DNA of 64,000 nucleotides, from positions 138,815-202,814 of the IMG/VR virus record IMGVR_UViG_3300031669_005479, one strand, 5' to 3'. A program made the position numbers and the translations under genes. The DNA comes from a virus (lineage: Duplodnaviria; Caudoviricetes). Below are positions 40,751 through 59,560 of the stretch, piece by piece (position 1 is the first letter of the stretch; each line of letters starts with the position of its first letter). Below the pieces are notes generated by a model. That model did no database searches. It saw nothing but the letters and a program-made list of their open reading frames with translations, and was not told where the DNA came from.

Positions 40751-40824
40751 TGGTGATTGAAGCATTAAAGTGATGCGTCAGACTGTGAATCTGAAGAAGA
40801 CGGGTCAGTACCGTCCTTTCACCC
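40751..40824 (+). tRNA. tRNA-His(GTG) with an atypical T-loop
   Basis: TCAGA-CTGTGAA-TCTGA; T-arm GACGG-GTCAGTA-CCGTC. Confidence 0.85.
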
Positions 40825-41192: not shown

Positions 41193-41277
41193 TGACCTCT
41201 GGTGGAATTGGCTAAACACAACTGTCTTTGAAGCAGTCGTCCGTAAGGATTTGCAAGTTCGAGTCTTGCGAGGTCAA
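41193..41277 (+). tRNA. non-canonical tRNA(TTG), Gln anticodon with a long variable arm
   Basis: TGACCTC/GAGGTCA, ACTGT-CTTTGAA-GCAGT, V-arm TCC-GTAA-GGA, Leu-like D-arm GTGGAATTGGCTAAACAC. Confidence 0.85.
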
Positions 41278-41282
41278 CAAAA

Positions 41283-41405
41283 ATAGGGTAGAATGGTGAG
41301 ACAGCTTCCCCTCGGACTAAAGGCATCAGGATTTGACGATGCCGATGTGAAGCATAGGTCAAGCAATGCATTGACTTAGGTCGAACCAAGAAAATCGAGG
41401 TTATT
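41283..41405 (+). ncRNA. candidate structured non-coding RNA between tRNAs
   Basis: Helices CCTCG/CGAGG, GGCATC/GATGCC and AGGTCAA/TTGACTT; GC-richer than the background. Confidence 0.4.
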
Positions 41406-41408
41406 TAT

Positions 41409-41481
41409 TGCTATGTAGTGTAATGGTTTAGCACAAGTGACTTTGAATCACTTAGTTACAGTTCGAATCTGTACATAGCAA
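41409..41481 (+). tRNA. tRNA-Gln(TTG), canonical
   Basis: TGCTATG/CATAGCA, AGTGA-CTTTGAA-TCACT, GTTCGAATC. Confidence 0.93.
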
Positions 41482-41490
41482 CTATTTTTA

Positions 41491-41572
41491 ATGTGGAAGT
41501 TAAAAAAATTCATTATTTTTACAAAAACATTATGTGGAAGTTAAAAAAATTCATTATTTTTACAAAAACATT
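41491..41572 (+). repeat. perfect 41-bp tandem duplication
   Basis: ATGTGGAAGTTAAAAAAATTCATTATTTTTACAAAAACATT twice. Confidence 0.92.
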
Positions 41573-41575
41573 ATT

Positions 41576-41959
41576 ATGAAGTATAACCTATATCTTGATG
41601 ACTTCCGTGACCCCATAGATTCTGCATATTATCTTAATAATCCTATTTATGAAACACTTCAATGGATTGTTGTTAGAAATTATGATGAATTTATTAAGTG
41701 TGTTATAGAAAATAGTATTCCAGAAGTAATATCCTTCGATCATGACTTGGCAGCAACACATTATGACCATCAATCTAATATAGAATACGATGTATTTACA
41801 GAAAAAACTGGTTATGATTGTGCTAAATGGTTTATTGATTATGTGATTGATAATAAATCGAAACTACCAAAAACAATACTTATTCATTCGATGAATCCTG
41901 CTGGAAGTGCTAATATTAAATCGCTATTTGATAGTTATATTAAATCATTAAATCTGTAA
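41576..41959 (+). CDS. cyclic-phosphate-processing receiver-like domain protein
   Basis: LYLDDFRDP, VVRNYDEF, ISFDHDL, TGYDCAKW, IHSMNPAG. Confidence 0.8.
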   Translation: MKYNLYLDDFRDPIDSAYYLNNPIYETLQWIVVRNYDEFIKCVIENSIPEVISFDHDLAATHYDHQSNIEYDVFTEKTGYDCAKWFIDYVIDNKSKLPKTILIHSMNPAGSANIKSLFDSYIKSLNL

Positions 41960-42011
41960 CAAATTTTAAATGTTTTCGTATAATCAACATATTTATATAT
42001 AAATCGATATT

Positions 42012-42653
42012 ATGAAAAATGGATTAAATGAAAAACAAATACTATTCGAAATGATGGAAAAAATAAATCCAGATTTCAGATATAATACCGATGTCATTGA
42101 AGGTGTTGGAGATAAATTTTTATCTAATAAACATATAGTTCCCGATGAATTTGATGAATTCGATAAAACATATTCTGCAACACAGAATGATAAAAATGGT
42201 GTTGTTTATCAGGAAGGTAATTGGCAGATATTAAAAAATCCCCAATCATTAACGGGTTTTGGTGCATCAGTCAGAGGAATCATTATGGATAATGGTGATT
42301 TATATCTTGAATCTCATGCAAAAAAAATTCATAATGATATACTTAAGATTTTAACAGAAATTGGTGTATTTACACAAATGCCACAAATAAATTGGGGTAT
42401 GAGAATTCCCCAAGAGAGTGGGTTTTTAACCGTTCAGAGATATAAAAATTCTCCATATATTGCTATAGGTGAAAGTAATCGAATTATATATAAAATCGAT
42501 AACTACGATAAACTAAAAAAATATTATGATGAATATATTGATAAGGCAAAAATAAAAATGCCAAACATTGAATTTATCGATAAACTTGTTGGTTCAAAAA
42601 GTGTTGTAAATACAAGTGGTGCTAATATTATGAATGAAACCTATTTAAAATAG
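42012..42653 (+). CDS. hypothetical protein with KQILFEMM leader
   Basis: MKNGLNEKQILFEMMEKINPDF. Confidence 0.7.
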   Translation: MKNGLNEKQILFEMMEKINPDFRYNTDVIEGVGDKFLSNKHIVPDEFDEFDKTYSATQNDKNGVVYQEGNWQILKNPQSLTGFGASVRGIIMDNGDLYLESHAKKIHNDILKILTEIGVFTQMPQINWGMRIPQESGFLTVQRYKNSPYIAIGESNRIIYKIDNYDKLKKYYDEYIDKAKIKMPNIEFIDKLVGSKSVVNTSGANIMNETYLK

Positions 42654-42932
42654 TTATTTCATCATCTAATTTCCTAAGTATTTATCATTAAAGATATAAA
42701 CATATTTACAATATAACAGTTAGGACTGTTATGGTTTCGACCAAATTAGGGATGATAAACGTTCGCTACTATTATCATCCCTTTCTTTATTGTAAAAATT
42801 TATCCAAAATTATGCATTAATTATGTTGCTAATATTATTGGTAGATTGATAATAAGATATTTAAAATATTTTTTCTTGTTTTTATAATAATTAAATATTT
42901 CCTTTGCATTGAAAATTTAAACACACAAAACT

Positions 42933-43835
42933 ATGAAAATTACTATTGATTATCTTAAAAAAATTAGGGCTTGTGATGAAGCAATTGCTAGGTTTAACAA
43001 CACACCTGAACTACATTCAGTTAATATTGAAAAATCAACTGAAATTATTGTTGGTGATGTATCATTATTTAATGATATTAATTGGTTAGTTAATAAGTTA
43101 AAAGGTAAACTGCCTGTTAGAAAGTTAACCTATAAAGGTTCTGATGGTTATTGGTCAGAAATGACTTATGATGATAATGGAAATAAGTTAACATATAAAA
43201 ATTCTGATGGTTATTGGTTAGAATATACCTATGATGAAAATGGAAAATTGTTAACCACTAAAAATTCTGATGGTTATTGGTTAGAATATACCTATGATGA
43301 TAATGGAAAATTGTTAACCACTAAAAATTCTGATGGTTATTGGGAAGAAAACACCTATGATGATAATGGAAATAAGTTAACACATAAGAAATCTAATGGT
43401 AGTTGGGAAGAAAACACCTATGATGATAATGGAAATAAGTTAACATATAAAAATTCTGATGGTTATTGGGAAGAAAACACCTATGATGATAATGGAAATA
43501 AGTTAACATATAAAAATTCTAATGGTTATTGGGAAGAAAACACCTATGATGATAATGGAAATAAGTTAACATATAAGAATTCTGATGGTTATTGGGAAGA
43601 AAACACCTATGATGATAATGGAAATTTGTTAACCACTAAAGATTCTAAAGGTTATTCGTGTGAATATACCTATGATGAAAATGGAAATAAATTAACCTAT
43701 AAGGATTCTAAAGGTTATTCGTGTGAATATACGTATGATGAAAATGGAAATAAATTAACCAATAAGGATTCTAATGACAATATTACTGATTACCCTAAAT
43801 TAAAATATGATTTGACTATTTTTGAAATAAAATAA
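42933..43835 (+). CDS. YD-like 22-aa tandem-repeat protein
   Basis: About 10 copies of GYWEENTYDDNGNKLTYKNSD (66-bp unit). Confidence 0.85.
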   Translation: MKITIDYLKKIRACDEAIARFNNTPELHSVNIEKSTEIIVGDVSLFNDINWLVNKLKGKLPVRKLTYKGSDGYWSEMTYDDNGNKLTYKNSDGYWLEYTYDENGKLLTTKNSDGYWLEYTYDDNGKLLTTKNSDGYWEENTYDDNGNKLTHKKSNGSWEENTYDDNGNKLTYKNSDGYWEENTYDDNGNKLTYKNSNGYWEENTYDDNGNKLTYKNSDGYWEENTYDDNGNLLTTKDSKGYSCEYTYDENGNKLTYKDSKGYSCEYTYDENGNKLTNKDSNDNITDYPKLKYDLTIFEIK

Positions 43836-43896
43836 TTCTAATAACTAATTGAGAATTAAGTATTTGAGAAATATATTGAAAATATTTTAAAAATAG

Positions 43897-43934
43897 TTTG
43901 CAATTATTGTAACATTTTATACCTTTGCATCGTA
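43897..43934 (+). promoter_or_regulatory. overlapping primary-sigma and ECF-like promoters of tRNA cluster 2
   Basis: TTTG-N19-TACCTTTG overlapping TGTAAC-N17-CGTA; near-identical block at 63739-63776. Confidence 0.8.
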
Positions 43935-43975
43935 TTTAGATAGAAAGAAACAAAAACAATTTAAATTATAAAACA

Positions 43976-44065
43976 ATGAAAAATTTACTCGACATATTAA
44001 TGGCAACTTTGGTGGAAGTCCTATTATGGGCAGACGCAGAGGATAAATTACGCACAGTCGGGTAA
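43976..44065 (+). CDS. attenuator leader peptide 2 (Leu/Asp/Glu/Val/Ala/Trp/Met)
   Basis: MKNLLDILMATLVEVLLWADAEDKLRTVG; ends in GTCGGGT complementary to the terminator 5' arm. Confidence 0.85.
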   Translation: MKNLLDILMATLVEVLLWADAEDKLRTVG

Positions 44066-44094
44066 TGTATATTACACACTCCTTTCTTAATAAG

Positions 44095-44129
44095 AAAAAC
44101 CCGACAAACGAAAGTAAGTCGGGTTTTTT
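44095..44129 (+). terminator. attenuator terminator 2
   Basis: AAAAACCCGAC...GTCGGGTTTTTT. Confidence 0.9.
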
Positions 44130-44169
44130 GATTTTTAGGTTGGATGTTCTTTGACATGTTGGAAATTTT

Positions 44170-44246
44170 GGTGATGTAGTTCAGTTGGCTAGAATGGGGC
44201 ACTGTCTATGCTCAGGTCGAGGGTTCGAGTCCCTTCATCACCGCCA
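44170..44246 (+). tRNA. tRNA-Asp(GTC) with encoded CCA
   Basis: GGTGATG/CATCACC-G-CCA, GGGCA-CTGTCTA-TGCTC. Confidence 0.95.
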
Positions 44247-44262
44247 AATTATAATATTAAAT

Positions 44263-44346
44263 GCGGCGTTATACAAGTGGCTAAAGTGGCAAGACCTTCA
44301 ATCTTGTATCGAAAGATTTCGAGGGGTTCGAATCCCCCACGCCGTA
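44263..44346 (+). tRNA. non-canonical tRNA(TTC), Glu anticodon with a long variable arm and C33
   Basis: GCGGCGT/ACGCCGT, CAAGA-CCTTCAA-TCTTG, V-arm ATC-GAAA-GAT, GGTTCGAATCC. Confidence 0.75.
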
Positions 44347-44441
44347 CGAAGTTCAATATGAAATATAGTGGTTTCAGAGGTTTGTTCATATTGAGGTTTA
44401 GTAATTCCAAGGTCGATAATAATGACCAAAAATCTCGCCAT

Positions 44442-44513
44442 GCTCGATTCGTCTAACGATTAGGACAAATGGTTTTCGTCCATTAAATGAGGGTTTGATT
44501 CCCTCATCGAGTA
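44442..44513 (+). tRNA. tRNA-Glu(TTC), canonical size
   Basis: GCTCGAT/ATCGAGT, AATGG-TTTTCGT-CCATT, GAGGG-TTTGATT-CCCTC. Confidence 0.9.
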
Positions 44514-44522
44514 CAATAATTT

Positions 44523-44593
44523 GGGGAATTGATGTAATGGTAGCGTGTTTGGCCTACATCCAAAACGAAATAGTTCGATTCTATTATTCCCTA
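44523..44593 (+). tRNA. tRNA-Val(TAC) with C33
   Basis: GGGGAAT/ATTCCCT, TTTGG-CCTACAT-CCAAA. Confidence 0.87.
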
Positions 44594-44604
44594 CAAAATA
44601 AATT

Positions 44605-44679
44605 GCGAGTGTAGCCGAATGGTTAATAGGCAACTGTTTTAGAAACAGAAATTTGCGGGTTCGACTCCCGCCATTCGCA
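44605..44679 (+). tRNA. tRNA-Leu(TAG) lacking the long variable arm
   Basis: GCGAGTG/CATTCGC, CTGT-TTTAGAA-ACAG, short variable loop. Confidence 0.85.
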
Positions 44680-44702
44680 CAAAGGGTTAAAAACAAAACT
44701 AT

Positions 44703-44789
44703 GGGGATGTGATGAAATTGGCGATACATGCCAGACTTAGAATCTGGTGCTAATAAACTGGCGTGTGGGTTCGAATCCCACCATCCTCA
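44703..44789 (+). tRNA. tRNA-Leu(TAG), canonical class II
   Basis: GGGGATG/CATCCTC, CCAGA-CTTAGAA-TCTGG, long V-arm. Confidence 0.95.
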
Positions 44790-44902
44790 CGTTTAGACCG
44801 TTTAGAATTTTTATTAGTAATGAAAATGCTAGTAAACATAAAAGTTGTTCAATCACATTGGATGAATTATTGACGAGAATTAAAATGTGGAATGTGAAAT
44901 AT

Positions 44903-44977
44903 GGGGCGTTAACTCAGTCTGCCTAGAGTGCTGCACTTGCAATGCAGAGGTCATCGGTTGAAATCCGATACGTTCCA
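44903..44977 (+). tRNA. tRNA-Ala(TGC)
   Basis: GGGGCGT/ACGTTCC with G3:U70, CTGCA-CTTGCAA-TGCAG. Confidence 0.94.
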
Positions 44978-45034
44978 CGAGTAGACCGTTTTAGAATTTT
45001 TTATTGACTAAGAGTAACGTAGAAAAATTCATAT

Positions 45035-45108
45035 GGCTCTGTAGCCGAACTGGAATAGGCAACTGTTTTAAAATCAGAAATTTGTGGGTTCGAGTCCCAC
45101 CAGAGCTA
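45035..45108 (+). tRNA. tRNA-Leu(TAA) lacking the long variable arm
   Basis: GGCTCTG/CAGAGCT, loop TTTAAAA; paralogous to 44605..44679. Confidence 0.83.
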
Positions 45109-45267
45109 CAAATCGTCTGGAGATTCCAGACAAAGTTTTTATAGTAAAATTTATTATTGTTTAATGAATGAAATTGAGTTACATGTTATTGATACTACAG
45201 AACAAAAATGTTTTAAAAAATGTATCTCTGAAAAGTATTTAAATATGATTATTAATATCATTAATAC

Positions 45268-45350
45268 ACGTCCGTAGGCATTGGTAAGCCAAACAGTCTC
45301 CAAAACTGCAACCCGAAAGGGTCTTGCTCGTTCGAATCGAGCTGGACGTG
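45268..45350 (+). tRNA. non-canonical tRNA-Trp(CCA) with a long variable arm and 4-bp anticodon stem
   Basis: ACGTCCG/TGGACGT-G, aCAGT-CTCCAAA-ACTGc, V-arm ACCC-GAAA-GGGT. Confidence 0.87.
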
Positions 45351-45443
45351 CTAATTTTTATAAATTTTGTAACATTTTGAATAGAGTATACGTATCATAA
45401 GAATCATTTAGTATTTTATTAATTTTGTAAAATTTATAAAGTT

Positions 45444-46181
45444 ATGTATATTATTGCAAAGAAAAACGAAAAGGATTATTATGATGGTGTTGTTGGTACC
45501 GTAGGTATTGATAAAACAATTGTGTATGAACGTAATATTATTGATGTCGAAAACAATAAAATTCCACCATTATTTAAAGAAGCAACATTATCCAATTTCG
45601 ATAATATTAAAAATAATTACTTTCATCAACTACATGACTTCAGAATTGATAAAATCCATGAAAATAAATTTCCATACGATTCATACTTTATTGTAGGATT
45701 TTGTGGAAAACTATATGTGGGTTGGAAACTTTATAGTTTTAAAAACATCAATAACGATGTGCTTATTACAATTACGTATGATTTGGATTATATCTTTGAA
45801 CTTTTTGACGAAAAAAATCGATTTGGTAATAGTCTATATGATATTGTTAGTTATATTTTAAACTATGATGCCATCGATTTGTTTAGAGAATTAAATACAC
45901 CAATTTTCATATATGATTATGATAGTAATGTGAAAAATATTAGTGGTTATTGTCGTGAATATCATAATTCAAAATTCATTATAAATCCACTATTAAAAAA
46001 CTATGAATTTTATAAAAAATTTGATAGTTTTCAAACATTTCAAGAAATAAGTATGTTTATTGGTGGAGTGTTAGGTAGTAAAGAAAAGAAAATTATTGAA
46101 GTTGAGGACAAGTATAAAATTGCACAACATGGCTTTAATAAATGGAGTTTTAGAAAAGAACCTAAAGATAAATCGATATAA
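45444..46181 (+). CDS. hypothetical phage protein
   Basis: 245-aa ORF after TGTAAC-N17-CGTA at 45368-45394. Confidence 0.75.
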   Translation: MYIIAKKNEKDYYDGVVGTVGIDKTIVYERNIIDVENNKIPPLFKEATLSNFDNIKNNYFHQLHDFRIDKIHENKFPYDSYFIVGFCGKLYVGWKLYSFKNINNDVLITITYDLDYIFELFDEKNRFGNSLYDIVSYILNYDAIDLFRELNTPIFIYDYDSNVKNISGYCREYHNSKFIINPLLKNYEFYKKFDSFQTFQEISMFIGGVLGSKEKKIIEVEDKYKIAQHGFNKWSFRKEPKDKSI

Positions 46182-46287
46182 TTTCAATATACATGAATAC
46201 TGGTATTGTAAGGAAAAATTGTCGTTACTTTTGAAATGTTAAAATTTTGTTGTTTATTTGTAACCATAAATTAATAAATATTGTGCT

Positions 46288-46725
46288 ATGTTTAATCCAG
46301 AGAGAAAAAGGGAAGAATTTGAAATAGAATTACATAATTTTATTAATTCATCTGAAGGAGATGCTTACTTTGAGAATGAAAGAATCAAAGAAGAGTTAAA
46401 ACAAATTCGTTACAAACATTTTGAAAAATTTCTTGAATCAAACGATTTTGATAAACTCATGTATCGTTTAATTCTTGAACATGATGATGAGTGGAGAGAA
46501 AAATGTTGGCATAATGGATGTGAGCCATATCCAAATAATAAATTAGGATTTGTTATTGATTATGTTACAAATAATTTTGATACCATAGATGTTCCACAAC
46601 TTCAAAATTCTTTTAATACACAAATTTGGTTTTTTAAGGGATATTATTTTAGAATAACGTTTGGACAGGGAGTTGTCTTTGATTTGTATAACGGAGACGA
46701 TTTTAGTCATTTGTTACATGCATAA
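46288..46725 (+). CDS. hypothetical protein
   Basis: 145-aa ORF. Confidence 0.7.
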   Translation: MFNPERKREEFEIELHNFINSSEGDAYFENERIKEELKQIRYKHFEKFLESNDFDKLMYRLILEHDDEWREKCWHNGCEPYPNNKLGFVIDYVTNNFDTIDVPQLQNSFNTQIWFFKGYYFRITFGQGVVFDLYNGDDFSHLLHA

Positions 46726-46825
46726 TTATTTGGCGAAGTGATGAATTGGTGGGAGGTAGAACTTGGTGGAGTTAATAAAGGTGCAGAAAGATTACGTGCT
46801 AAAACAGAAATTAAAAAAGAATTAA

Positions 46826-47017
46826 ATGAGTTTACTTTTTAGAAATTGGCTCGATGAAGGTTATTATAAAGAAGATGGTTATGATGATTTAACTCGAATT
46901 GAAGACCGTGCAGATATTCTTCGTGCGCAAAAGGAAAACACACTATATCAAAATGATGGTATGACTACCACAAAAGTAAATGATGGTGAAAATATTGAAT
47001 TATGGCAAAAGCAATAA
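46826..47017 (+). CDS. hypothetical protein
   Basis: 63-aa ORF overlapping two smaller ORFs in tandem. Confidence 0.5.
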   Translation: MSLLFRNWLDEGYYKEDGYDDLTRIEDRADILRAQKENTLYQNDGMTTTKVNDGENIELWQKQ

Positions 47018-47127
47018 AAAACAATAAATCTATACCCAAAGAGGATGATTGTAAATGTGGTAAATCTGTTAAAATAACACAAAGAAAAAATATTGGATAT
47101 AAAAAAACAATTAAAAAAAGAATATAG

Positions 47128-47202
47128 CCCCTAGTGACGTAACTTGGCAAACGTGTTCGGCTCAAACCCGAAATTTTGTGGGTTCGAATCCCACTTAGGG
47201 GA
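47128..47202 (+). tRNA. tRNA-Leu(CAA) lacking the long variable arm
   Basis: CCCCTAG/TTAGGGG, TTCGG-CTCAAAC-CCGAA, 5-nt variable loop. Confidence 0.85.
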
Positions 47203-47277
47203 CAACTAATTTAAATTTAATGTTATGAAAAAAATGTATGAAGTTTTGTAAATTGCTCTAATGCAATTGCAAAACAA

Positions 47278-47559
47278 ATGAAAAGTAAAAAAATCGTGGA
47301 CACTACCACAAATCGTGGCGAATTCAATCGTGCTTATAAATCGTATCTTGAACATGATGGTAAAATTCGTTGCACTTATTGTTCATATCATCGTGGCGAA
47401 AATAAAACCACTCATATGTATTGGGGTGATGATGAGCATATTAAATACCCTAACTGGAAATTAGTTTCAAAGTATTCTAAACGGTGGATGAAAAAACCGA
47501 TGAGAATGATTGAACGCACCAATCGATGGGGTAATAATTACGTTGAGATTAAATTTTAG
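47278..47559 (+). CDS. hypothetical basic protein (CxxC/H)
   Basis: IRCTYCSYHRGEN. Confidence 0.65.
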   Translation: MKSKKIVDTTTNRGEFNRAYKSYLEHDGKIRCTYCSYHRGENKTTHMYWGDDEHIKYPNWKLVSKYSKRWMKKPMRMIERTNRWGNNYVEIKF

Positions 47560-47568
47560 ATGCTCTTT

Positions 47569-47639
47569 GGCGACATGGTATAAAGGTAGAACACCTCTCT
47601 CATAAGGAGTTGATACGGGTTCGATTCCCGTTGTCGCTA
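47569..47639 (+). tRNA. tRNA(CAT): Met or lysidine-Ile2
   Basis: GGCGACA/TGTCGCT, loop CTCATAA, GGTTCGATTCC. Confidence 0.87.
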
Positions 47640-47680
47640 CAATCCCCTCGAATTCGAGGGGATTATAATTTCCAACATGG

Positions 47681-47932
47681 TTATTTTTTAATAAACCATT
47701 TCCATCCTGCATATGCTATGGATGTAAATATCCAAAGTCCTAAAAGAATGTTGGCGAGTCCAACACCATCTTTATTGTAAACATTATTGTAAGATAAAAC
47801 AATTACAATATAGTTTACAACAATAAACCAATTTTTTTTAAGCCATGATAATGGCTTTGTAATAAACCATGTTTTTATTGCAGTCCATTTAACAAATAGC
47901 CATGCTACAATTTTGTTCCAGAGATTTTTCAT
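47681..47932 (-). CDS. small membrane protein
   Basis: Trp-rich amphipathic N-terminus and two hydrophobic segments. Confidence 0.6.
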   Translation of the reverse strand: MKNLWNKIVAWLFVKWTAIKTWFITKPLSWLKKNWFIVVNYIVIVLSYNNVYNKDGVGLANILLGLWIFTSIAYAGWKWFIKK

Positions 47933-47950
47933 AATTATATTTAGATTATA

Positions 47951-48418
47951 TTATTTGTTGAAATTTAATGTGCAGGTATTTGTGCTAAAATCAAATTCTA
48001 AATCCTTAACAAATAAACCGCTACCATACATAAGTGCAATATCCTCTGGAACCTTAAATTTCCATTGAAAATCACCTATTTGTTTCACACTACCATTTGA
48101 TTCTGGAACAACCGCATCGCTTTGTTTATCACGAAATTCTAGCAAATATTGACCTTCGACACTTTCTCCAACAACAATAAAATTTTCAATACCTGCATTA
48201 TTAATTCTAAATCCTGCTTTCCACGTTATTGTGATTTCAGCATTAATTATGTCGGCATCATAATCGCTAGAAAAATTTTCATAGTTATAGAAAAAAACGT
48301 TTGGGTGTAATATTGTTTGTTTAAATGTGAAATGATTGCTATCATTTGTTGTATTTTGATTTAAAAAATTTTGTACCTCTTCTGTTACAATATTTTTTGT
48401 TTTAAATTTATTTATCAT
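47951..48418 (-). CDS. hypothetical late protein
   Basis: AGTATTTAT upstream on the sense strand. Confidence 0.7.
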   Translation of the reverse strand: MINKFKTKNIVTEEVQNFLNQNTTNDSNHFTFKQTILHPNVFFYNYENFSSDYDADIINAEITITWKAGFRINNAGIENFIVVGESVEGQYLLEFRDKQSDAVVPESNGSVKQIGDFQWKFKVPEDIALMYGSGLFVKDLEFDFSTNTCTLNFNK

Positions 48419-48484
48419 ATTTGTGATTTTTCATAAATACTATATTCTATTCAAATTGTTTTGTATATTTGTAAAAAAAAGTAA

Positions 48485-49021
48485 ATGCATAACATTATTG
48501 AACAGGAATATAGTTCAGCAAAAACATCAATAAAACAAATTCCAGCTGGTGTTAATATTATTGATAAATATTTTGGTTGGAAGCCCAATACAATTAATTT
48601 GGATATTGGTGGTGGAAAATATGAGTTAATGACAGAGAATTTACATGAGAAGCATGTTTTGAATTTAGTTTATGATCCCTATAATAGAAGCATTGCACAC
48701 AATCAAATGGTTTTAACGGCATGTAAATCACTTGTAATAGATACTGTAACCATATTTAATGTGCTGAATGTTATTAAGGAGCGTGAAATTCAAATAGAGG
48801 TGATTAATCTTGCATTAGCGATGCTTAAAATGAACGGTATGTTATTTGTCAGGTCAACATATATGAATAAAAATAAGGTGTCTGGCGTAACAAAATTGGG
48901 CACATTTCAGCATCACATGAAGCAATCAGAGTATCTTAAGATAGTTCAGAATGTTTTTCCAAATGCTGAGTTAAATCATGGAATAATCTTTGCAAAAAAG
49001 TTATCCAACATAGTAACATAA
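48485..49021 (+). CDS. class I SAM-dependent methyltransferase-like protein
   Basis: NLDIGGGKY, VYDPYN, DTVTIFNVLNVI. Confidence 0.7.
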   Translation: MHNIIEQEYSSAKTSIKQIPAGVNIIDKYFGWKPNTINLDIGGGKYELMTENLHEKHVLNLVYDPYNRSIAHNQMVLTACKSLVIDTVTIFNVLNVIKEREIQIEVINLALAMLKMNGMLFVRSTYMNKNKVSGVTKLGTFQHHMKQSEYLKIVQNVFPNAELNHGIIFAKKLSNIVT

Positions 49022-49065
49022 AGTAAAAATATTCGTATAATTAGTAAATTATAATTCTTACTATA

Positions 49066-50151
49066 ATGGAAATGTTAAAAAAGGTTGATTGGAATTTGTT
49101 GAATACTTATATTGATAATAGTCATATTGTAGCAAATAAACACCCACAATATGATATTTGGATATTGAACTATTCACCAAAGGCACAATCTAATAAATTT
49201 TGGGATATATATACCCTATCTTGTCGTGGATTGGTGATTGATGTCGATGGTAATATATTAGCACGTCCATTTCAAAAATTTAAAAATTATGAAGAGCATA
49301 ATCCATCAGAAATCGATATGTCACAAGAATTTGATATTTTCGAAAAAATGGACGGTTCGTTAATCATAGTATTTTACTATGTGCCACGTATGGAATGGAT
49401 TGTCGCTTCAAGAGGTTCATTCATTTCTGAACAGTGTATGGAAGCAAAGAAAATGATTGATGTAAATATTTACAATAAACTTAAAACTGATTGTACATAT
49501 TTATTTGAAGTAATATATCCAGAAAATAGAATTGTTCTTGACTATGGAAATAGAAGAGAATTGGTATTGCTTACAAGGATTAAAACTGAATCTGGTATGG
49601 AAATGTACTATGATGATTTAGTTGCAACATATTCAAAATACTTTACTGTTGTAAAGAAATACATACTAAATGATATTCATGACCTAAATGATTTAAAAGC
49701 AATTGAAGAGGAAAACAAAGAAGGATTTGTTGTTAGATTCTTAAGTGGATTTAGAGTTAAGGTGAAATTTAGCGAATACATTAGATTGCATGGTATTTTA
49801 ACAAATGTTTCTAATCTAACTGTTTGGGAACACTTAAAAAATAATTATGATTTCGATGATTTGTTGGATAGAGTTCCAGATGAATTCTACAGTTGGCTGA
49901 AAAGAACAGTAAGGATATTACAAGGAGAATTCAATGAAATTGAAAGATTGGCGTTGAAGGATTTTGTAAGAATTTACTATACTAATGGAGTCACAGAACG
50001 CAAAGAATTTGCAATGGAAGCAATTAAAACTGAACATCGTTCAATACTGTTTAGATTGTACGATAAAAGAGGTTATGATGAAATTATTTGGAAACTGGTG
50101 AGACCAATATATTCAAAGCCATTTTCTAAAAATTTTGAAAATATTTCATAA
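49066..50151 (+). CDS. RNA ligase (T4 Rnl1/RnlA-like)
   Basis: CRGLV, RPFQKFKNY, EKMDGS (motif I), ASRGSF, YLFEVI, EGFVV, RVKVK. Confidence 0.9.
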   Translation: MEMLKKVDWNLLNTYIDNSHIVANKHPQYDIWILNYSPKAQSNKFWDIYTLSCRGLVIDVDGNILARPFQKFKNYEEHNPSEIDMSQEFDIFEKMDGSLIIVFYYVPRMEWIVASRGSFISEQCMEAKKMIDVNIYNKLKTDCTYLFEVIYPENRIVLDYGNRRELVLLTRIKTESGMEMYYDDLVATYSKYFTVVKKYILNDIHDLNDLKAIEEENKEGFVVRFLSGFRVKVKFSEYIRLHGILTNVSNLTVWEHLKNNYDFDDLLDRVPDEFYSWLKRTVRILQGEFNEIERLALKDFVRIYYTNGVTERKEFAMEAIKTEHRSILFRLYDKRGYDEIIWKLVRPIYSKPFSKNFENIS

Positions 50152-50162
50152 AAAATTAAATT

Positions 50163-50396
50163 ATGGGTGGAATATTAGAAAAGAAAGAAAATGGATGGTA
50201 TGTTAGATGGTCAGACCTACATTCATTTATCAATGGAACGCATTGGATGTGCACACCATTACATCCAACAGAAATTGTTGATGAAACAAAATATAGTGAT
50301 GGTGATGAAGTAGAATTTGAAATGGTTGTTACTACTGGTTACGATGTAGAAAATTTCATTCCATTTAGATATGTTAAACTCTTAAAACAAAAATAA
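50163..50396 (+). CDS. hypothetical protein
   Basis: 77-aa ORF. Confidence 0.6.
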   Translation: MGGILEKKENGWYVRWSDLHSFINGTHWMCTPLHPTEIVDETKYSDGDEVEFEMVVTTGYDVENFIPFRYVKLLKQK

Positions 50397-50440
50397 TATT
50401 TTATTTGTGGTAGTACTAGTATTTTTAATTAAATAATTAT

Positions 50441-50632
50441 ATGATGAAAGAAAGATATATGATTGTGAGAATAGTGAATATTCTTGCAGAAATGAAAGAT
50501 AATGGTTCGATGATAACTGAACCATGTTATCAAATAGTTGATAAAGATTATGAGACACCAGATTCTGCTTATAATGTTAAAGAAAATTATAGAGAACCGA
50601 AACACTATATCGTTGTACAATATTGGTGCTAA
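50441..50632 (+). CDS. cassette 1 hypothetical protein
   Basis: Stop codon TAA lies inside the GCTAAC box. Confidence 0.6.
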   Translation: MMKERYMIVRIVNILAEMKDNGSMITEPCYQIVDKDYETPDSAYNVKENYREPKHYIVVQYWC

Positions 50633-50758
50633 CGTCAAATGTATGGTTAGTGGCGAATTAGAAACCACAAACCTATCAAACTGAACAAAAGTAAGTAGAT
50701 AAAACAAATGTTAAACCACACACAAAACCGCCATTAACTATACATATTGTTAGGCGTA
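50627..50758. repeat. attC-like site 1
   Basis: TGCTAAC...ATGTATGGTTAGTGGCG / CGCCATTAACTATACAT...GTTAGGCGTA. Confidence 0.8.
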
Positions 50759-50780
50759 TGTGCTTTAAAATCATAAAAAT

Positions 50781-51200
50781 ATGAAATACGAATTAAGACA
50801 TCATTCATATAAACCAACTTTAGGAGGTAAAAGTGTTCTGTCGAATAAAACAATAAACGACCTTGGTGAAAGTGCATTATATTACGTAGGAACATTTAGT
50901 GAGTATAATCCATTGTATTTGGGAAACAATTCATTATTATATATAAGAAAAAACTGGACAACAGATGGGAATATACTGCACAAGATTAACTTAAAAGGAT
51001 TAAAATTTAAAGGCGGAATTAATCATTCTGGTTCTGGTATTTGCACTCATGGAGGATTCCAATTAACTAAACAAGATTTATTAAGAATTGCTAATGCTAT
51101 GGATGAAACAGATACCCTTGTTTTATCTGAAATCATACAAAAGACAGAGGAAGGAATTAAAATGTTCAAAGATGGACTAATAGAGGTTGTAGGTTCTTAG
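50781..51200 (+). CDS. cassette 2 hypothetical protein
   Basis: Flanked by GTTAGGCGTA and TACGCCTAAC. Confidence 0.7.
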   Translation: MKYELRHHSYKPTLGGKSVLSNKTINDLGESALYYVGTFSEYNPLYLGNNSLLYIRKNWTTDGNILHKINLKGLKFKGGINHSGSGICTHGGFQLTKQDLLRIANAMDETDTLVLSEIIQKTEEGIKMFKDGLIEVVGS

Positions 51201-51203
51201 CAT

Positions 51204-51301
51204 TACGCCTAACGATTGGGTATATACGAAGTACCCTAACTACAAACTTAAAAATTAGTACAAACCTTAATAGGGTATTTCGTATATACCTTGTTAGCAA
51301 A
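51204..51301. repeat. attC-like site 2
   Basis: GCCTAAC...GGTATATACGAAGTACCCTA / TAGGGTATTTCGTATATACC...GTTAGCAAA. Confidence 0.82.
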
Positions 51302-51312
51302 TCGTAAAAATT

Positions 51313-51453
51313 ATGCCAAGAGAACCACTACCATTAAAAAGAGAACATAAAGGCGATGTAACAATAAACATCGCAGATATATTTAGAAATCCTGAAATGC
51401 AAAAAGAAGCTATAAAAGGTTGCAAAAAACTTAAACCACGTAAACGTAAATAA
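51313..51453 (+). CDS. cassette 3 small protein (46 aa)
   Basis: MPREPLPLKREHKGDVTINIADIF...; flanked by GTTAGCAAA and TTTGCTAAC. Confidence 0.55.
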   Translation: MPREPLPLKREHKGDVTINIADIFRNPEMQKEAIKGCKKLKPRKRK

Positions 51454-51461
51454 TTTATATG

Positions 51462-51592
51462 TTTGCTAACGGTTTTAATATAAAACGTTGCAACATAAAG
51501 GTAAATACATGTAACAAAACTTGAAATTAAACGTATAATATAATAGAAACCACAACAGCAATGTTTTATATTTGTTGTTATAAACAGTTTCA
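51462..51592. repeat. attC-like site 3 (contains an ECF-like promoter)
   Basis: TGCTAAC...ATATAAAACGTTGC / GCAATGTTTTATAT...GTTATAAAC; TGTAAC-N16-CGTA at 51510-51535. Confidence 0.8.
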
Positions 51593-51610
51593 TCATTTAA
51601 TTTTTTTATT

Positions 51611-51775
51611 ATGAAAGAAGATAAAGTAATAAAAGCAATTGAAATATACATAAGAGAAACGGGTAATAAGTATGGTATAAGTTTAATTAAAAAATTAAAT
51701 GATTACATATACCAAATAAATGACCGAGAAATAAATATAAACACAAACTCTATTGGATACACAGATATTGAGTGA
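51611..51775 (+). CDS. cassette 4 small protein (54 aa)
   Basis: MKEDKVIKAIEIY...; flanked by GTTATAAACAGTTTCA and TGAAATTGTTTATAAC. Confidence 0.55.
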   Translation: MKEDKVIKAIEIYIRETGNKYGISLIKKLNDYIYQINDREININTNSIGYTDIE

Positions 51776-51910
51776 AATTGTTTATAACGTTGATTGTATG
51801 GCACGTTGCCACTACTAAGTTTAATTTGAAAAACAAAATATTATGATTACAGAAATAGAAAAATTGAAAAAACTACAGCAATGTGCTATACAATGTGTTA
51901 TGGCACGTAC
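51773..51910. repeat. attC-like site 4 (right arm is translated)
   Basis: TTATAAC...ATTGTATGGCACGTTGC / GCAATGTGCTATACAAT...GTTATGGCAC. Confidence 0.8.
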
Positions 51911-52151
51911 TTCTGATGCTGAATTAGCTACAAGAGCGACACGAGTTGGAGAGCTTCATTGTTTGCACATAGCAGCAACTATGAATATAGAAGAAACTGC
52001 CAAAAGCTTAACACAAATACTTGAATACAAACAAGAACTCGCAAAAGAGATGCTGCGGTGTTCGGACGAAAAAGCAACCGACCAATTAGCGGATGCAATT
52101 ACATATAGTGACGAAATGATTAAAAAGGTGCTTGGTATGTATGTGCCATAA
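51843..52151 (+). CDS. cassette 5 hypothetical protein
   Basis: Start lies inside the loop of site 4; stop in the CCATAAC box. Confidence 0.6.
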   Translation: MITEIEKLKKLQQCAIQCVMARTSDAELATRATRVGELHCLHIAATMNIEETAKSLTQILEYKQELAKEMLRCSDEKATDQLADAITYSDEMIKKVLGMYVP

Positions 52152-52435
52152 CGGCTGGCGGTATGGTGTCGGTTGCCGTTGAATAACCCACCGACTTTGA
52201 TTAAATGAACAAATGTTGAATAACTTAAATAGTGAGCGATTATGAAACAAGCGGAAATAGTAAAACAAAGATTAAATTACCACTTTAGAAAAACAGATGG
52301 TGGATGGTTAATACCAGAAAATATGCCATTTATGAATGAGTTTTTAAACGAGGTAAGTAAATTATGTGAATTAGCGAACGGTGCTGAACAAAGAGAAAGC
52401 AACTGCAATATACCGCTTGTTAGCACACGTTATTT
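52139..52435. repeat. attC-like site 5 with an expanded coding loop
   Basis: GCCATAAC...GCGGTAT...GGTTGC / GCAACT...ATACCGC..GTTAGCACAC; arms more than 200 nt apart. Confidence 0.7.
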
Positions 52436-52580
52436 TGCTAAAATTAAATACTACCCTTGCACGGGTGGAGAACCAATATGGACTGTTGATGAAGTAGATG
52501 CAACAAGTATCGAGCACGCTACCGAATTGTTTAATGATATATGGCACATGAACGCAGAAGTTAAATGCGTGTATAAATAA
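52242..52580 (+). CDS. cassette 6 hypothetical protein
   Basis: Reads through the right arm of site 5 (ESNCNIPLVSTR). Confidence 0.6.
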   Translation: MKQAEIVKQRLNYHFRKTDGGWLIPENMPFMNEFLNEVSKLCELANGAEQRESNCNIPLVSTRYFAKIKYYPCTGGEPIWTVDEVDATSIEHATELFNDIWHMNAEVKCVYK

Positions 52581-52680
52581 TGTGTGCTAACGGTTGGGTG
52601 TATGAGAAGGTTTGCTTAGATGAACTTTCAAATTACTACTAAACTTTATAGCAAACTTTCTTATACACCTTGTTATGCTC
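52575..52680. repeat. attC-like site 6
   Basis: GTGCTAAC...GGTGTATGAGAAGGTTTGCT / AGCAAACTTTCTTATACACC..GTTATGCTC. Confidence 0.82.
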
Positions 52681-52792
52681 TCGTGCCGACTTATTAACCA
52701 CAAATCTTAATTTGAAACACGAAATAAAAACAAAAAGAATTTTAGGGTGGATTTTTTAAAATTGAATATTTATATATATAAAACAAAAACCT

Positions 52793-53260
52793 ATGAGTGA
52801 AGATATACGTAAAATGATTGATAAGGTGAAAAACTTTAAGCAGTTTGTTAATGAGAATGTTGATAATTATTACACATTATATCATGGAACAAGTAGTGGT
52901 AGATTAGATTTTATTAAATCAAAACCAACCAAATTATTTTTAACTGATAGTGAAGATGTTGCAACATATTATGCTGCAAAAGGTGGTGAAGATTATTTTA
53001 TGACTAAAGAAATTGAATTTGAAAAACAATATGGCGAAACACCAGATGATTATTTTAACACACAAGAAAATGGCGAACTACCTATGTTTAAAGCATTATA
53101 TCCTAAAAATGAAACCCCAATTGTTATAAAATTTCAAATACCTAAAAGTTTAATTAAAAACATTAATGATTTTATTGGATATAAAGGTGGTGAATTATTA
53201 GTTGAACCAAATTATATTTCAGAAATTATTAGTATTGATTTTGATGATTTAGATTATTAA
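52793..53260 (+). CDS. cassette 7 protein, putative ADP-ribosyltransferase-fold with late-type leader
   Basis: MSEDIRKMIDKVKNFKQFVNE leader, LYHGTS...LFLTDSEDVATYYA; own TATTTATA motif. Confidence 0.55.
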   Translation: MSEDIRKMIDKVKNFKQFVNENVDNYYTLYHGTSSGRLDFIKSKPTKLFLTDSEDVATYYAAKGGEDYFMTKEIEFEKQYGETPDDYFNTQENGELPMFKALYPKNETPIVIKFQIPKSLIKNINDFIGYKGGELLVEPNYISEIISIDFDDLDY

Positions 53261-53329
53261 AAAGTGCGTAGGGAAATTCTTTTTGTTTTTCATCACGAAA
53301 CTCAAATTGAAACACAGAACTAAGGCATG

Positions 53330-53461
53330 GAGCATAACGGCTGCGTGTATGAAACGTTGCCATCACAGAAGTAAATAGAATGAATAAAATTATAAATTTA
53401 GTATAAACTTAAAAAAGACCACGAAAGGCAATGTTTTATACACGTTGTTATGTGGCGTTAA
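53330..53461. repeat. attC-like site 7
   Basis: GAGCATAAC...CGTGTATGAAACGTTGCC / GGCAATGTTTTATACACG..GTTATGTGGC. Confidence 0.82.
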
Positions 53462-53466
53462 TTATT

Positions 53467-53700
53467 ATGACACCAAAAAAAATTGAAACGTATGTAGATT
53501 TACCTGAATATGGTAAGTATGTACTTGTAAGTGGAATTGACAAACGAATGTATGATACTCGTAGATGGCACGTTTGTGAAATGAATGATTTGGAAGATGG
53601 ATTAGATTATCGTGATAAAGGTCAATTTTTTTGGCTTACCGAGAACGGAACTAAAATTGAAGAAGTAACACATTGGTGCGAGTTACCACCTCTTCTTTAA
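53467..53700 (+). CDS. cassette 8 hypothetical protein (DUF551-like)
   Basis: DLPEYGKYVLV...VTHWCELP; flanked by GTTATGTGGCGTTAA and TTAATGCCACATAAC. Confidence 0.65.
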   Translation: MTPKKIETYVDLPEYGKYVLVSGIDKRMYDTRRWHVCEMNDLEDGLDYRDKGQFFWLTENGTKIEEVTHWCELPPLL

Positions 53701-53771
53701 TGCCACATAACTCGTTTATATATGCACCTATTTACTAAGTAAGTGTCTGATAATCATTAAATAAATTAGTA

Positions 53772-54005
53772 ATGGCTAATGAAATAATTGGTATGTGGAT
53801 ACTTAGATATGATGATTGGTATTTAATCATTACATCTGATAAGAAAGTGTTTGACGTTAAAACAAAAAAACAACTTATTGAGTATTGGAATAATGGAACC
53901 ATTGCGTATAGATTACCATGTTCAACCAAGAAAATAGGAATTAAAACAATCAATAAGTATTGCATAAAAAGTACGGTTGTATTGCAAGAATTTTGCCCAT
54001 TTTAA
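53772..54005 (+). CDS. hypothetical protein
   Basis: 77-aa ORF. Confidence 0.55.
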   Translation: MANEIIGMWILRYDDWYLIITSDKKVFDVKTKKQLIEYWNNGTIAYRLPCSTKKIGIKTINKYCIKSTVVLQEFCPF

Positions 54006-54022
54006 AAATAATTACAAATTTT

Positions 54023-54064
54023 TGTAACATTTTGTTGTTTATTACGTATTTATACTTATATTTG
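54023..54064 (+). promoter_or_regulatory. stacked promoters of tRNA cluster 3
   Basis: TGTAAC-N16-CGTA, GTATTTAT and GTTG-N19-TATATTTG all overlap here. Confidence 0.75.
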
Positions 54065-54101
54065 TAATCTGAAAAACAAACAAAATTAAAACAATAGAAC
54101 A

Positions 54102-54194
54102 ATGAGAACTTTTGGTAAATATTATTTTAGTAAAAAATCATATAAGAAACAACTTATAGGAATCGGGAATAGTATGTCCAAAAGAAAATCATAA
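54102..54194 (+). CDS. attenuator leader peptide 3 (Lys/Tyr-rich)
   Basis: MRTFGKYYFSKKSYKKQLIGIGNSMSKRKS; AATCGGG complementary to the terminator 5' arm. Confidence 0.83.
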   Translation: MRTFGKYYFSKKSYKKQLIGIGNSMSKRKS

Positions 54195-54214
54195 TGATTT
54201 TGGAATTAAACCAT

Positions 54215-54245
54215 AAAAACCCGATTCGAAAGTTTCGGGTTTTTT
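54215..54245 (+). terminator. attenuator terminator 3
   Basis: AAAAACCCGA-ttcgaaagtt-TCGGGTTTTTT. Confidence 0.9.
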
Positions 54246-54263
54246 ATTTTTTAAAAGTGAAAT

Positions 54264-54350
54264 GTACCTATGGCTCAATTGGTAGAGCAACTGGCTTTTA
54301 ACCAGTGGGGTTGCTAACGCACGTTGAGGGTTCGAGTCCCTCTGGGTACA
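54264..54350 (+). tRNA. non-canonical tRNA-Lys(TTT) with a 19-nt variable region
   Basis: GTACCTA/TGGGTAC, ACTGG-CTTTTAA-CCAGT, variable region GGGGTTGCTAACGCACGTT. Confidence 0.88.
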
Positions 54351-54355
54351 CAAAT

Positions 54356-54428
54356 ATCTCAGTAGCTTAGTTGGTAGAGTAGGTGTCTCTTAAACATCGG
54401 GTCATGGGTTCGAATCCCATCTGAGGTA
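54356..54428 (+). tRNA. tRNA-Lys(CTT)
   Basis: ATCTCAG/CTGAGGT, GGTGT-CTCTTAA-ACATC. Confidence 0.92.
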
Positions 54429-54434
54429 CAATTT

Positions 54435-54503
54435 GGGAGTAATTCTTTGGAGAAACCAGCTCTGTAAAAGCTCACATAGTGGGTTCGATGCCCTCTACTC
54501 CCA
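54435..54503 (+). tRNA. minimal tRNA-Tyr(GTA) with no long V-arm and a 4-nt D-loop
   Basis: GGGAGTA/TACTCCC, TTCT-TTGG-AGAA, AGCT-CTGTAAA-AGCT, GGTTCGATGCC. Confidence 0.75.
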
Positions 54504-54797
54504 CTTATTTTAGTATCAATAGTTTCCAACACCTTTAATGGATTCTAGTTTAATCGAATGCACAAAAGGGGCAATTGTTTAAAAACGATTGCCTTTTTTA
54601 TTTTCGAATGTATTTCAATGTAACGTTTTGCCATTTCCATTTCAAATATTCAGTACGATTGAGGTCTTGAATTTCTTCACGAATTATCGAAATCACACTA
54701 CTCATGATTAAATTTTTTTATTCTAAATAACCTTGCACTTTAATTAAAAATGAATTATCTTTGTGCAAAATAACTTTATGCTTAAATAATTTAATAA

Positions 54798-55544: not shown

Positions 55545-55745
55545 TTTTCCTTTTTTTTATTATATTTTTTTCTTTATTTATGGGAGCAAATTGCTCCCAT
55601 TTTTTATTAAAAGTTTGTGAATGAATTTGTTGAAAAATTTTCAAAAATATAACATTTTTTCATAATAAAAATCAATAATACCTTGTATTTATGATGGACA
55701 AACAATATATTTGTAAACATAATTTTTATAAAAAATTTTTAATTT

Positions 55746-59354: not shown

Positions 59355-59560
59355 GATAATCCGCATCTAACACATTTTAAACATCCTCAATATGTATAAC
59401 AATTATTGAGGATGTTTTATTTTATTTTACTGAAATGTGAAATATCACAAGTATTTTTCAAAATACTTGTAAATTAAAAATTTTGTAGTATTTTTGTCAC
59501 GATTTAGTTATTATAAGTTTAATTGAATCGTAAAAATAATTTTATTTAATATACAATAAA

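Follow-up and report, generated by a model that had tools for sequence, protein, structure and literature searches.

The tRNA genes at positions 41,193 to 54,503 of the viral DNA studied here raise the question of whether a phage can exchange the architectural classes of its transfer RNAs (tRNAs), and why it would do so. The stretch analysed, which we call the window, is 64,000 nucleotides long and forms the last 64 kb of the 202,814-bp IMG/VR virus record IMGVR_UViG_3300031669_005479 (GC ~30%). In bacteria, the tRNAs with a long variable (V) arm, those of class II, are the ones for Leu, Ser and Tyr, and the remaining isotypes have a short loop (class I). In the window, tRNAs for Gln, Glu, Trp and Lys have a long V region and three tRNAs for Leu and a Tyr-like element have a short one, so that both directions of the swap occur together, across many isotypes. 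The odd tRNA genes are real and under selection. With a little less than even confidence, we favour the explanation that they encode remodelled, selectively maintained tRNAs that are charged with their cognate amino acids and evade host defences directed at tRNA.

The source is a large T4-like phage from soil. Pfam searches identified the hallmarks of a T4-like myovirus in the record (Gp23 major capsid protein, Gp20 portal, T4-type terminase, T4 baseplate and tail sheath). By the CheckV estimate the record is ~66% complete, and the sequencing runs containing it are labelled soil metagenome, with minor shares in wastewater runs. None of these runs is registered as RNA, and two from wastewater with an RNA-Seq label are probably DNA. 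Briefly, we detected tRNAs by running ARAGORN on the window and on the whole 203-kb record, and by running Infernal with the Rfam family RF00005 (gathering cut-off 29 bits; the Rfam tRNA-Sec family has a cut-off of 47 bits). ARAGORN called 19 tRNAs in the whole record, 18 of which lie in the window. It made no call in 20 shuffles of the whole 203-kb record, which excludes chance as the source of the calls. Relatives were recruited through their Rnl1-like ligase and then with exact words from the odd tRNAs, and the tRNAs of the resulting ~25 other IMG/VR contigs were re-annotated.

Five long-armed tRNAs were found in the record, four of them in the window (positions are those of the window unless stated otherwise):

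41193..41278, plus strand: long-armed tRNA-Gln(UUG), 86 nt, V region 15 nt; called by ARAGORN, RF00005 51 bits.
44263..44347, plus strand: long-armed tRNA-Glu(UUC), 85 nt, V region 14 nt; called by ARAGORN, RF00005 36.6 bits.
45268..45351, plus strand: long-armed tRNA-Trp(CCA), 84 nt, V region 16 nt; called by ARAGORN only.
54264..54351, plus strand: long-armed tRNA-Lys(UUU), 88 nt, V region 19 nt; called by ARAGORN, RF00005 65.5 bits.
89036-89122 of the whole record, outside the window, minus strand: long-armed tRNA with anticodon CAU, 87 nt; called by ARAGORN.

A first, sequence-only reading of the window had described long variable regions in the Gln, Glu, Trp and Lys(UUU) tRNAs, and the searches bear this out, with ARAGORN calling all four and RF00005 all but Trp. 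Where class I tRNAs have 4–5 nt, the V regions of these four are hairpins of 15, 14, 16 and 19 nt, respectively. The Infernal alignment places the extra letters of the RF00005-confirmed long tRNAs in a single block, inserted after the anticodon stem and before the T stem, and the acceptor stems have 7 bp and the T stems 5 bp throughout (ARAGORN and Infernal drawings). The hairpins consist of the stem TCC/GGA with the loop GTAA in Gln, ATC/GAT with GAAA in Glu, ACCC/GGGT with GAAA in Trp and TGC/GCA with TAAC in Lys. The long Lys tRNA otherwise has a Lys-type body, with A73 and ~14 additional nt in the V loop; the Trp tRNA has A1:U72 and G73; and the long Glu tRNA shares G1.U72 and C2:G71 with a canonical sibling. 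The long Gln tRNA combines U1:A72, G2:C71 and A73 at its acceptor end with a Leu-like D arm and V arm. The anticodon loop of the long Glu tRNA, CCUUCAA, has a C at the nearly universal U33 position, and a C33 subfamily of tRNA-Glu(UUC) is also found in contigs G001, G002, G008 and L043, among long-armed and normal-sized copies alike.

The CAU tRNA belongs to a long family of 85–88 nt with orthologs in L047-L052 and G006. Its 17-nt V region is conserved in sequence over at least seven phage contigs (AGACATC, then A or T, AATGC, two variable bases and GT), and all members have a mismatch at 1:72 (U.U, A.A or C.A), recalling bacterial initiator tRNA. In several contigs it adjoins a 73-nt CAU tRNA with an initiator-like D arm; Met, fMet and Ile2 are candidate identities. 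Several contigs sharing the long CAU tRNA also contain a tRNA with the anticodon CUA, an amber suppressor (L048 2502-2574, L049 5619-5690 and L050 6434-6506), which suggests that these phages read TAG as a sense codon.

The opposite change, loss of a class II arm, was found in the following genes:

44605..44680, plus strand: short-armed tRNA-Leu(UAG), 76 nt, V loop 5 nt (AATTT); called by ARAGORN, RF00005 62 bits.
45035..45109, plus strand: short-armed tRNA-Leu(UAA), 75 nt, V loop 5 nt; called by ARAGORN, RF00005 58 bits.
47128..47203, plus strand: short-armed tRNA-Leu(CAA), 76 nt, V loop 5 nt (ATTTT); called by ARAGORN, RF00005 56.6 bits.
54435..54503, plus strand: tRNA-Tyr(GUA)-like element, 69 nt; RF00005 23.2 bits, against a 29-bit cut-off; not called by ARAGORN.

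None of the four has the V arm of at least 10 nt, forming a stem-loop, that characterizes class II. For the Leu tRNAs, ARAGORN and RF00005 agreed on V loops of 5 nt each, as the sequence-only reading had it. In E. coli, A73, a class II-type D arm and an A15:U48 pair are Leu identity elements; each of the three short Leu tRNAs has A73 and a terminal U48. In the UAG and UAA copies, the D stem is of 3 bp and the D loop long, at 11 nt, and the CAA copy, which has C1:G72, has a D stem of 4 bp. The acceptor stem and T arm of the short Leu(UAA) are close to those of a class II Leu(UAA) tRNA in G002. The claim of a short-looped Tyr tRNA stood in part. The element has a V loop of 4–5 nt, a reduced D arm and A73, and when it is compared with the 84-nt tRNA-Tyr(GUA) of G008, the closest relative, a tRNA with a 12-nt V arm, the acceptor stem is identical and the T arm differs by one base. 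It is therefore an ortholog of that tRNA that lacks the arm and part of the D arm. As a tRNA call it is weak, with a sub-threshold score and no ARAGORN call, and it may be functional or decaying.

Canonical-size copies with the same anticodon accompany the odd Gln and Glu tRNAs and one odd Leu tRNA, as had been reported, and a canonical tRNA-Lys(CUU) lies between the long Lys tRNA and the Tyr-like element:

41409..41482, plus strand: canonical tRNA-Gln(UUG), 74 nt; called by ARAGORN, RF00005 67.3 bits.
44442..44514, plus strand: canonical tRNA-Glu(UUC), 73 nt; called by ARAGORN, RF00005 56.4 bits.
44703..44790, plus strand: canonical class II tRNA-Leu(UAG), 88 nt; called by ARAGORN, RF00005 56.1 bits.
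54356..54429, plus strand: canonical tRNA-Lys(CUU), 74 nt; called by ARAGORN, RF00005 62.2 bits.

Swapped-class tRNAs occur in every relative of the clade and are absent from a 345-kb outgroup. The relatives and this record together yielded 39 distinct tRNAs that combine a long arm with a class I anticodon (Gln, CAU, Glu, Trp, Pro, Lys, Cys, Thr, Ile-GAU, Asn, Val and His). Gln and CAU are overrepresented in this set, since both were searched for by pattern. A canonical sibling with the same anticodon lies near 25 of the 39. Short-armed Leu and Tyr tRNAs were represented by 14 distinct members. The idea that the arm marks the trio of tRNAs with xm5s2U (UUG, UUC and UUU) finds no support as a rule: in relatives, Val, Pro, Cys, Thr, Asn, Ile, His and CAU tRNAs have the arm as well, and with Gln and CAU set aside only 5 of 21 distinct long-armed tRNAs are Glu or Lys.

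The orthologs provide the evidence for selection. Ten distinct orthologs of the long Gln tRNA were found, nine of which were aligned (contigs of 13–675 kb), and RNAalifold identified compensatory changes at 17 of the 20 cloverleaf pairs. The V hairpin is absent from this consensus because MAFFT and RNAalifold cannot register V arms of differing length, and V stems were judged singly with RNAfold. The ten orthologs have at least eight different V stems (examples are TCC/GGA, GCC/GGT, AACC/GGTT, GCCAT/ATGGC, GAGC/GCTC and GCC/GGC), all of which fold as hairpins, with loops that include GTAA, GAAA, TTCG and GCAA. Between the long Glu tRNA and its ortholog in G008, the V stem changes from ATC/GAT to GCC/GGC, the loop is GAAA in both, and G3:C70 becomes A3:U70. 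The long Lys tRNA differs from its counterparts in L054-L059 in the V stem (TGC/GCA with loop TAAC here, GAC/GTC with loop GTAA there); the acceptor stems covary too, and the flanks of the V region are alike (5' GGGG and 3' GTT). The Trp tRNA and its ortholog in L053 have identical D and anticodon arms, and the V stem changes from ACCC/GGGT to GAC/GTC, with a 7-nt loop, CTGATAA, in L053. The extra arms of the window do not display a copy of an anticodon loop, as their loops are GTAA, GAAA, GAAA and TAAC; a 7-nt loop was seen in the L053 ortholog only. Among the short tRNAs, Leu(CAA) has orthologs in G008 and L046, in which a near-identical body is held within different acceptor stems (CCCCTAG/TTAGGGG, CTCCAAG/CTTGGAG and CCCCAGA/TCTGGGG). 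Because the orthologs show compensatory stem changes, which in the four long tRNAs of the window extend into the extra hairpin, the odd tRNAs are not pseudogenes, and they are very probably genuine, functional phage tRNAs.

Among 185,579 species genomes, the D-arm word of the long Gln tRNA was found only in one mis-binned, phage-like contig of 5.9 kb, and the design appears not to be cellular. The contig matches L044 and L045 were chance matches within coding sequence and not tRNAs. No cultured or deposited phage matched the tRNA region in a megablast search, and a distant blastn search with the long Gln tRNA was likewise negative; the same search with the short Leu(CAA) tRNA matched a single uncultured phage of 636 kb. 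We found no cultured model phage for these particular tRNA genes.

To which amino acids do these tRNAs belong? We removed the anticodon arm and the V region from each body and sought the nearest tRNAs. The Trp body was nearest to a 72-nt tRNA-Trp of G002, the long Lys body to Lys tRNAs of 74–75 nt, the long Glu body to Glu tRNAs of 75–76 nt, and the short Leu bodies to Leu tRNAs of 85–89 nt. The odd bodies are thus nearest to their own isotype, so the arm was gained or lost within isotype lineages. In Lys, for example, a V loop that is GGGTT in relatives reads GGGG, 12 nt and GTT here. A short Leu body with a D arm starting GCCGAA has the anticodons UAG and UAA here and AAG in G008, all of them Leu. 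The long Gln tRNA is exceptional, with a Gln-like acceptor end and a D arm and V arm nearly those of the phages' tRNA-Leu. The discriminator among its ten orthologs is A, G or U, whereas it is a fixed A in the Leu tRNAs, and U1:A72 is kept; the variable discriminator argues against a constraint from leucyl-tRNA synthetase (LeuRS).

The codons that these tRNAs read are the ones the phage uses most: among the codons for each amino acid, the share is 78% for CAA (Gln), 85% for GAA (Glu), 76% for AAA (Lys) and 47% for TTA (Leu). Only one of the 19 tRNA genes has an encoded CCA. The sequence-only reading had suggested that the remodelled bodies might need phage synthetases. This finds no support, as Pfam identified no aminoacyl-tRNA synthetase domain in the 70 open reading frames (ORFs) of at least 280 amino acids in the ~66% complete, 203-kb record. 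Because the bodies are of their own isotype, isotype marks are kept and the phage's commonest codons are read, these tRNAs are most likely charged with their cognate amino acids by host enzymes, which on the sequence features given we regard as probable.

Genes for RNA processing and repair accompany the tRNAs:

41534..41959, plus strand: ORF with a cREC_REC (cyclic-phosphate processing receiver) domain (PF20274, E 2.5e-21).
49066..50151, plus strand: T4 Rnl1-type RNA ligase (PF09511, E 2.8e-20).
54080-55810 of the whole record, minus strand: CCA-adding enzyme fused to an Acb1/2H-phosphoesterase-like C-terminal domain (Pfam).

The cREC ORF follows the Gln tRNAs, and the ligase lies between tRNA clusters; we take the two to be components of RNA repair systems. 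The Pfam matches of the ORFs scanned included no Pnk-like kinase/phosphatase domain. Bacterial defences against phage include enzymes that cut tRNA: retron-Eco7 and Septu cleave tRNA-Tyr in its variable loop, and the loop of the T5 tRNA-Tyr resists them (PMC13096335), and a bacterial Schlafen protein cleaves the Lys-UUU, Met-CAU, Val-UAC and further tRNAs (PMC13056530).

We propose the following explanation. The phage would have added a short, stable hairpin to its Gln(UUG), Glu(UUC), Trp(CCA) and Lys(UUU) tRNAs and to the CAU tRNA elsewhere in its genome, with a stem of 3–4 bp and, in the four of the window, a GNRA tetraloop or, in Lys, UAAC, and it would have deleted the class II arm from Leu(UAG), Leu(UAA), Leu(CAA) and Tyr(GUA). 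Only the variable region would be remodelled, the remainder of each molecule staying that of its own isotype. Host synthetases could then load the cognate amino acid and the phage's own enzyme add the CCA, and the products would serve in decoding the phage's most frequent A-ending codons. Remodelling would alter the surface that host tRNA-targeting defence enzymes recognize, and the phage-made copy may survive where the host tRNA, or the canonical phage copy, is cut. Evasion of host tRNases had been among the suggestions of the sequence-only reading and is plausible; that it is the selective reason for the remodelling is our leading but tentative proposal, reached by analogy with the systems above. 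More doubtful is the broader idea that large phages systematically build a shape-shifted tRNA set, giving class I tRNAs an arm and stripping class II tRNAs of theirs, whose members are missed by host defence enzymes that sort tRNAs by architecture (class I versus class II); synthetases that read the anticodon and the acceptor end would still charge the phage copies.

Several observations weigh against this explanation. PrrC and other known anticodon nucleases recognize the anticodon stem-loop and not the variable region, and the arm is found on many isotypes without an obvious tie to known nuclease targets. Two of the genes score poorly: the Trp tRNA is below the RF00005 cut-off, its best match within the clan being tRNA-Sec at 37 bits, under that family's 47-bit cut-off (Infernal), and the Tyr-like element is also sub-threshold in Infernal. 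As for charging, a missing nucleotide 47 belongs to the identity of the E. coli glutamyl-tRNA synthetase (GluRS), an element that the 14-nt V region of the long Glu tRNA violates. The long Gln tRNA, with its Leu-like D and V arms, its A15/U48 pair and A73, might be cross-charged by LeuRS, alone in the set. Among the prokaryotic LeuRS enzymes tested, only that of Streptomyces is reported to charge type I tRNA-Leu (Fan et al. 2019, PMC6614811), and therefore the charging of the short Leu tRNAs in a low-GC host is not assured. Finally, the arm is labile among close relatives, G001 and G002 having canonical Trp and Glu tRNAs and a class II Leu(UAA).

This lability also fits the main rival explanation, in which V hairpins come and go by neutral or nearly neutral turnover in phage tRNA clusters that duplicate and recombine, on the premise that most synthetases do not face the V region and that EF-Tu and the ribosome tolerate it. 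That arm presence for the same isotype differs between close relatives, that many isotypes are affected without a pattern and that HNH and GIY-YIG endonucleases and inteins surround the clusters all speak for turnover, and E. coli LeuRS tolerates structural variation of the tRNA-Leu arm, according to reviews (PMC9976931). Against turnover, the long Gln, Lys and CAU tRNAs are retained over highly diverged contigs, in which compensatory changes maintain the hairpin, and every insertion is a stable, capped hairpin in one and the same position. The design also recurs independently in many lineages and is essentially absent from cellular genomes. For these reasons we consider turnover unlikely to be the explanation.

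Selection on the arm may also have a cause other than defence. The arm, or its absence, could be a handle by which a phage or host factor distinguishes phage tRNAs from host tRNAs for processing, modification, CCA addition, protection or repair by the Rnl1/cREC system. The phage has genes for a CCA-adding enzyme, Rnl1 and cREC, and in the long CAU family the V region is conserved as sequence and not as structure alone. Set against this, orthologs of the long Gln, Glu, Lys and Trp tRNAs have V stems of unlike sequence, so that any reader would need to recognize shape only; no candidate binding protein was identified, and the canonical siblings in the same cluster would be without the handle. 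A role as a handle seems improbable.

A further alternative, which the sequence-only reading had entertained, is deliberate mischarging, in which class II-like bodies that bear class I anticodons receive Leu or Ser, as do nematode nev-tRNAs and bacterial allo-tRNAs, and mistranslate host or phage proteins. LeuRS and the seryl-tRNA synthetase (SerRS) ignore the anticodon (PMC9976931), and the nev-tRNAs are a precedent (PMC3333845). In the long Gln tRNA, the D arm is nearly identical to that of the phage tRNA-Leu, A15/U48 and A73 are present in this phage, and the Leu-type V arm (stem GCC/GGT, loop GAAA) is followed by TT where tRNA-Leu has GT. The conservation of U1:A72 and G2:C71 and a discriminator that is A, G or U among orthologs, where Leu tRNAs have a fixed A73, argue against mischarging, and the long Trp, Lys and Glu tRNAs have bodies of their own isotype. 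Moreover, the V stems here are too short for typical recognition by SerRS. The target codons are the phage's commonest, and therefore mistranslation would harm the phage itself. With own-isotype bodies, isotype marks and dominant phage codons all pointing the other way, we judge deliberate mischarging very unlikely, with only the long Gln tRNA leaving room for it. Some long-armed Pro(UGG), His(GUG) and Lys(UUU) tRNAs of relatives have Ser-like D arms and V arms of Ser length, up to 24 nt with a 7-bp stem (L043 4423-4517, minus strand; L049 2394-2483, minus strand; L008 17833-17917, plus strand; L053 9242-9330, plus strand); for these, as judged from sequence, mischarging with Ser may be harder to dismiss than for the tRNAs of the window.

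That the odd genes are decaying pseudogenes or gene-finder artefacts is barely credible and is contradicted for the set as a whole: the Trp and Tyr genes do fall below Infernal cut-offs, and the long Glu tRNA, with its C33, reaches only 36.6 bits, but there are orthologs with compensatory changes, the shuffled records gave no calls, and the long Lys tRNA scores 65.5 bits and the short Leu tRNAs 56–62 bits.

The surroundings of the tRNA genes have some features of their own. A divergent tRNA-His(GUG) lies at 40753-40823 (plus strand; Rfam 36.3 bits, no ARAGORN call), with G-1:C73, an acceptor stem that contains two U.U mismatches, and TCAGTAC as an unusual T loop. Inteins and homing endonucleases are unusually numerous (window 55746-59354, 25387-28689 and 8028-10529; whole record 89302-92328 and 116208-118097) and interrupt the genes for the large subunit of ribonucleotide reductase, the portal protein, a UvrD-like helicase, a DnaB-like helicase and PhoH. 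A free-standing HNH gene lies between two Pro tRNAs (40168-40677), GIY-YIG genes are also present, and an ORF with RHS repeats separates two tRNA clusters (42933-43835, plus strand). Elsewhere in the record, a 1331-amino-acid ORF has an ART-PolyVal ADP-ribosyltransferase domain (whole record 55856-59851, minus strand). In relatives, a transfer-messenger RNA (tmRNA) gene lies within the tRNA cluster, between Trp and Leu (L001 3485-3849, L002 7349-7712 and L046 6903-7267); ARAGORN found no tmRNA in this record.

Taken together, the class I/II split, textbook-fixed in bacteria, is broken in both directions by one phage for eight or nine tRNAs, and among its relatives a dozen isotypes or more are affected, with structural selection clearly evident. 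Should the charging be cognate, host synthetases, EF-Tu and the ribosome would tolerate far more variation of the tRNA body than has been assumed, which would be useful for tRNA engineering, and the variable region would become a candidate battleground between phage tRNAs and tRNA-targeting immunity. For annotation, isotype-specific tRNA finders will mislabel or miss such genes.

How do these tRNAs compare with known systems? A full-text literature search found no paper describing phage tRNAs of swapped class, and term searches of a review of non-canonical tRNAs and of one on tRNA identity brought up no mention of them. The type I tRNA-Leu(CAA) of Streptomyces coelicolor (PMC6614811) resembles the short Leu tRNAs in having a Leu anticodon and a short V loop and in coexisting with class II tRNA-Leu, and there it is leucylated. 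It belongs to a cellular, high-GC actinobacterium and needs a special LeuRS, whereas this phage has three or four Leu anticodons, 30% GC and no LeuRS gene that we could find, and the comparison is of architecture only. Long V arms on anticodons of class I families are known from the nev-tRNAs of nematodes (PMC3333845) and from other eukaryotic tRNAs with V arms that are not Leu or Ser. The nev-tRNAs are eukaryotic, have Leu identity and are charged with Leu in vitro, unlike the own-isotype bodies described here, among which the long Gln tRNA is ambiguous. The allo-tRNAs (Mukai et al. 2017, PMC5389517) are bacterial or metagenomic and combine a long V arm with non-Ser anticodons, but they have an 8/4 or 9/3 acceptor/T branch and Ser or Ala identity, where the branch here is the canonical 7/5.

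Closest to the explanation that we favour, evasion of tRNA-targeting defence by cognately charged tRNAs, are two phage systems. The tRNA-Tyr of T5 is a phage tRNA with an altered variable loop and is reported to be resistant to retron-Eco7 and Septu (PtuAB) (PMC11555353, PMC13096335). It keeps class II and concerns a single isotype; here arms are added or removed across at least eight isotypes, and resistance is not implied. Phage tRNAs able to escape anticodon nucleases (van den Berg et al. 2023, PMC10264068) are similar in that the copies diverge from host tRNAs at the site that the enzyme reads. In those the change lies in the anticodon loop and in the tRNAs described here in the variable region, which, if the broader idea of a shape-shifted tRNA set is true, would represent a general and so far undescribed principle of counter-defence that acts on the body of the tRNA rather than on its anticodon loop.

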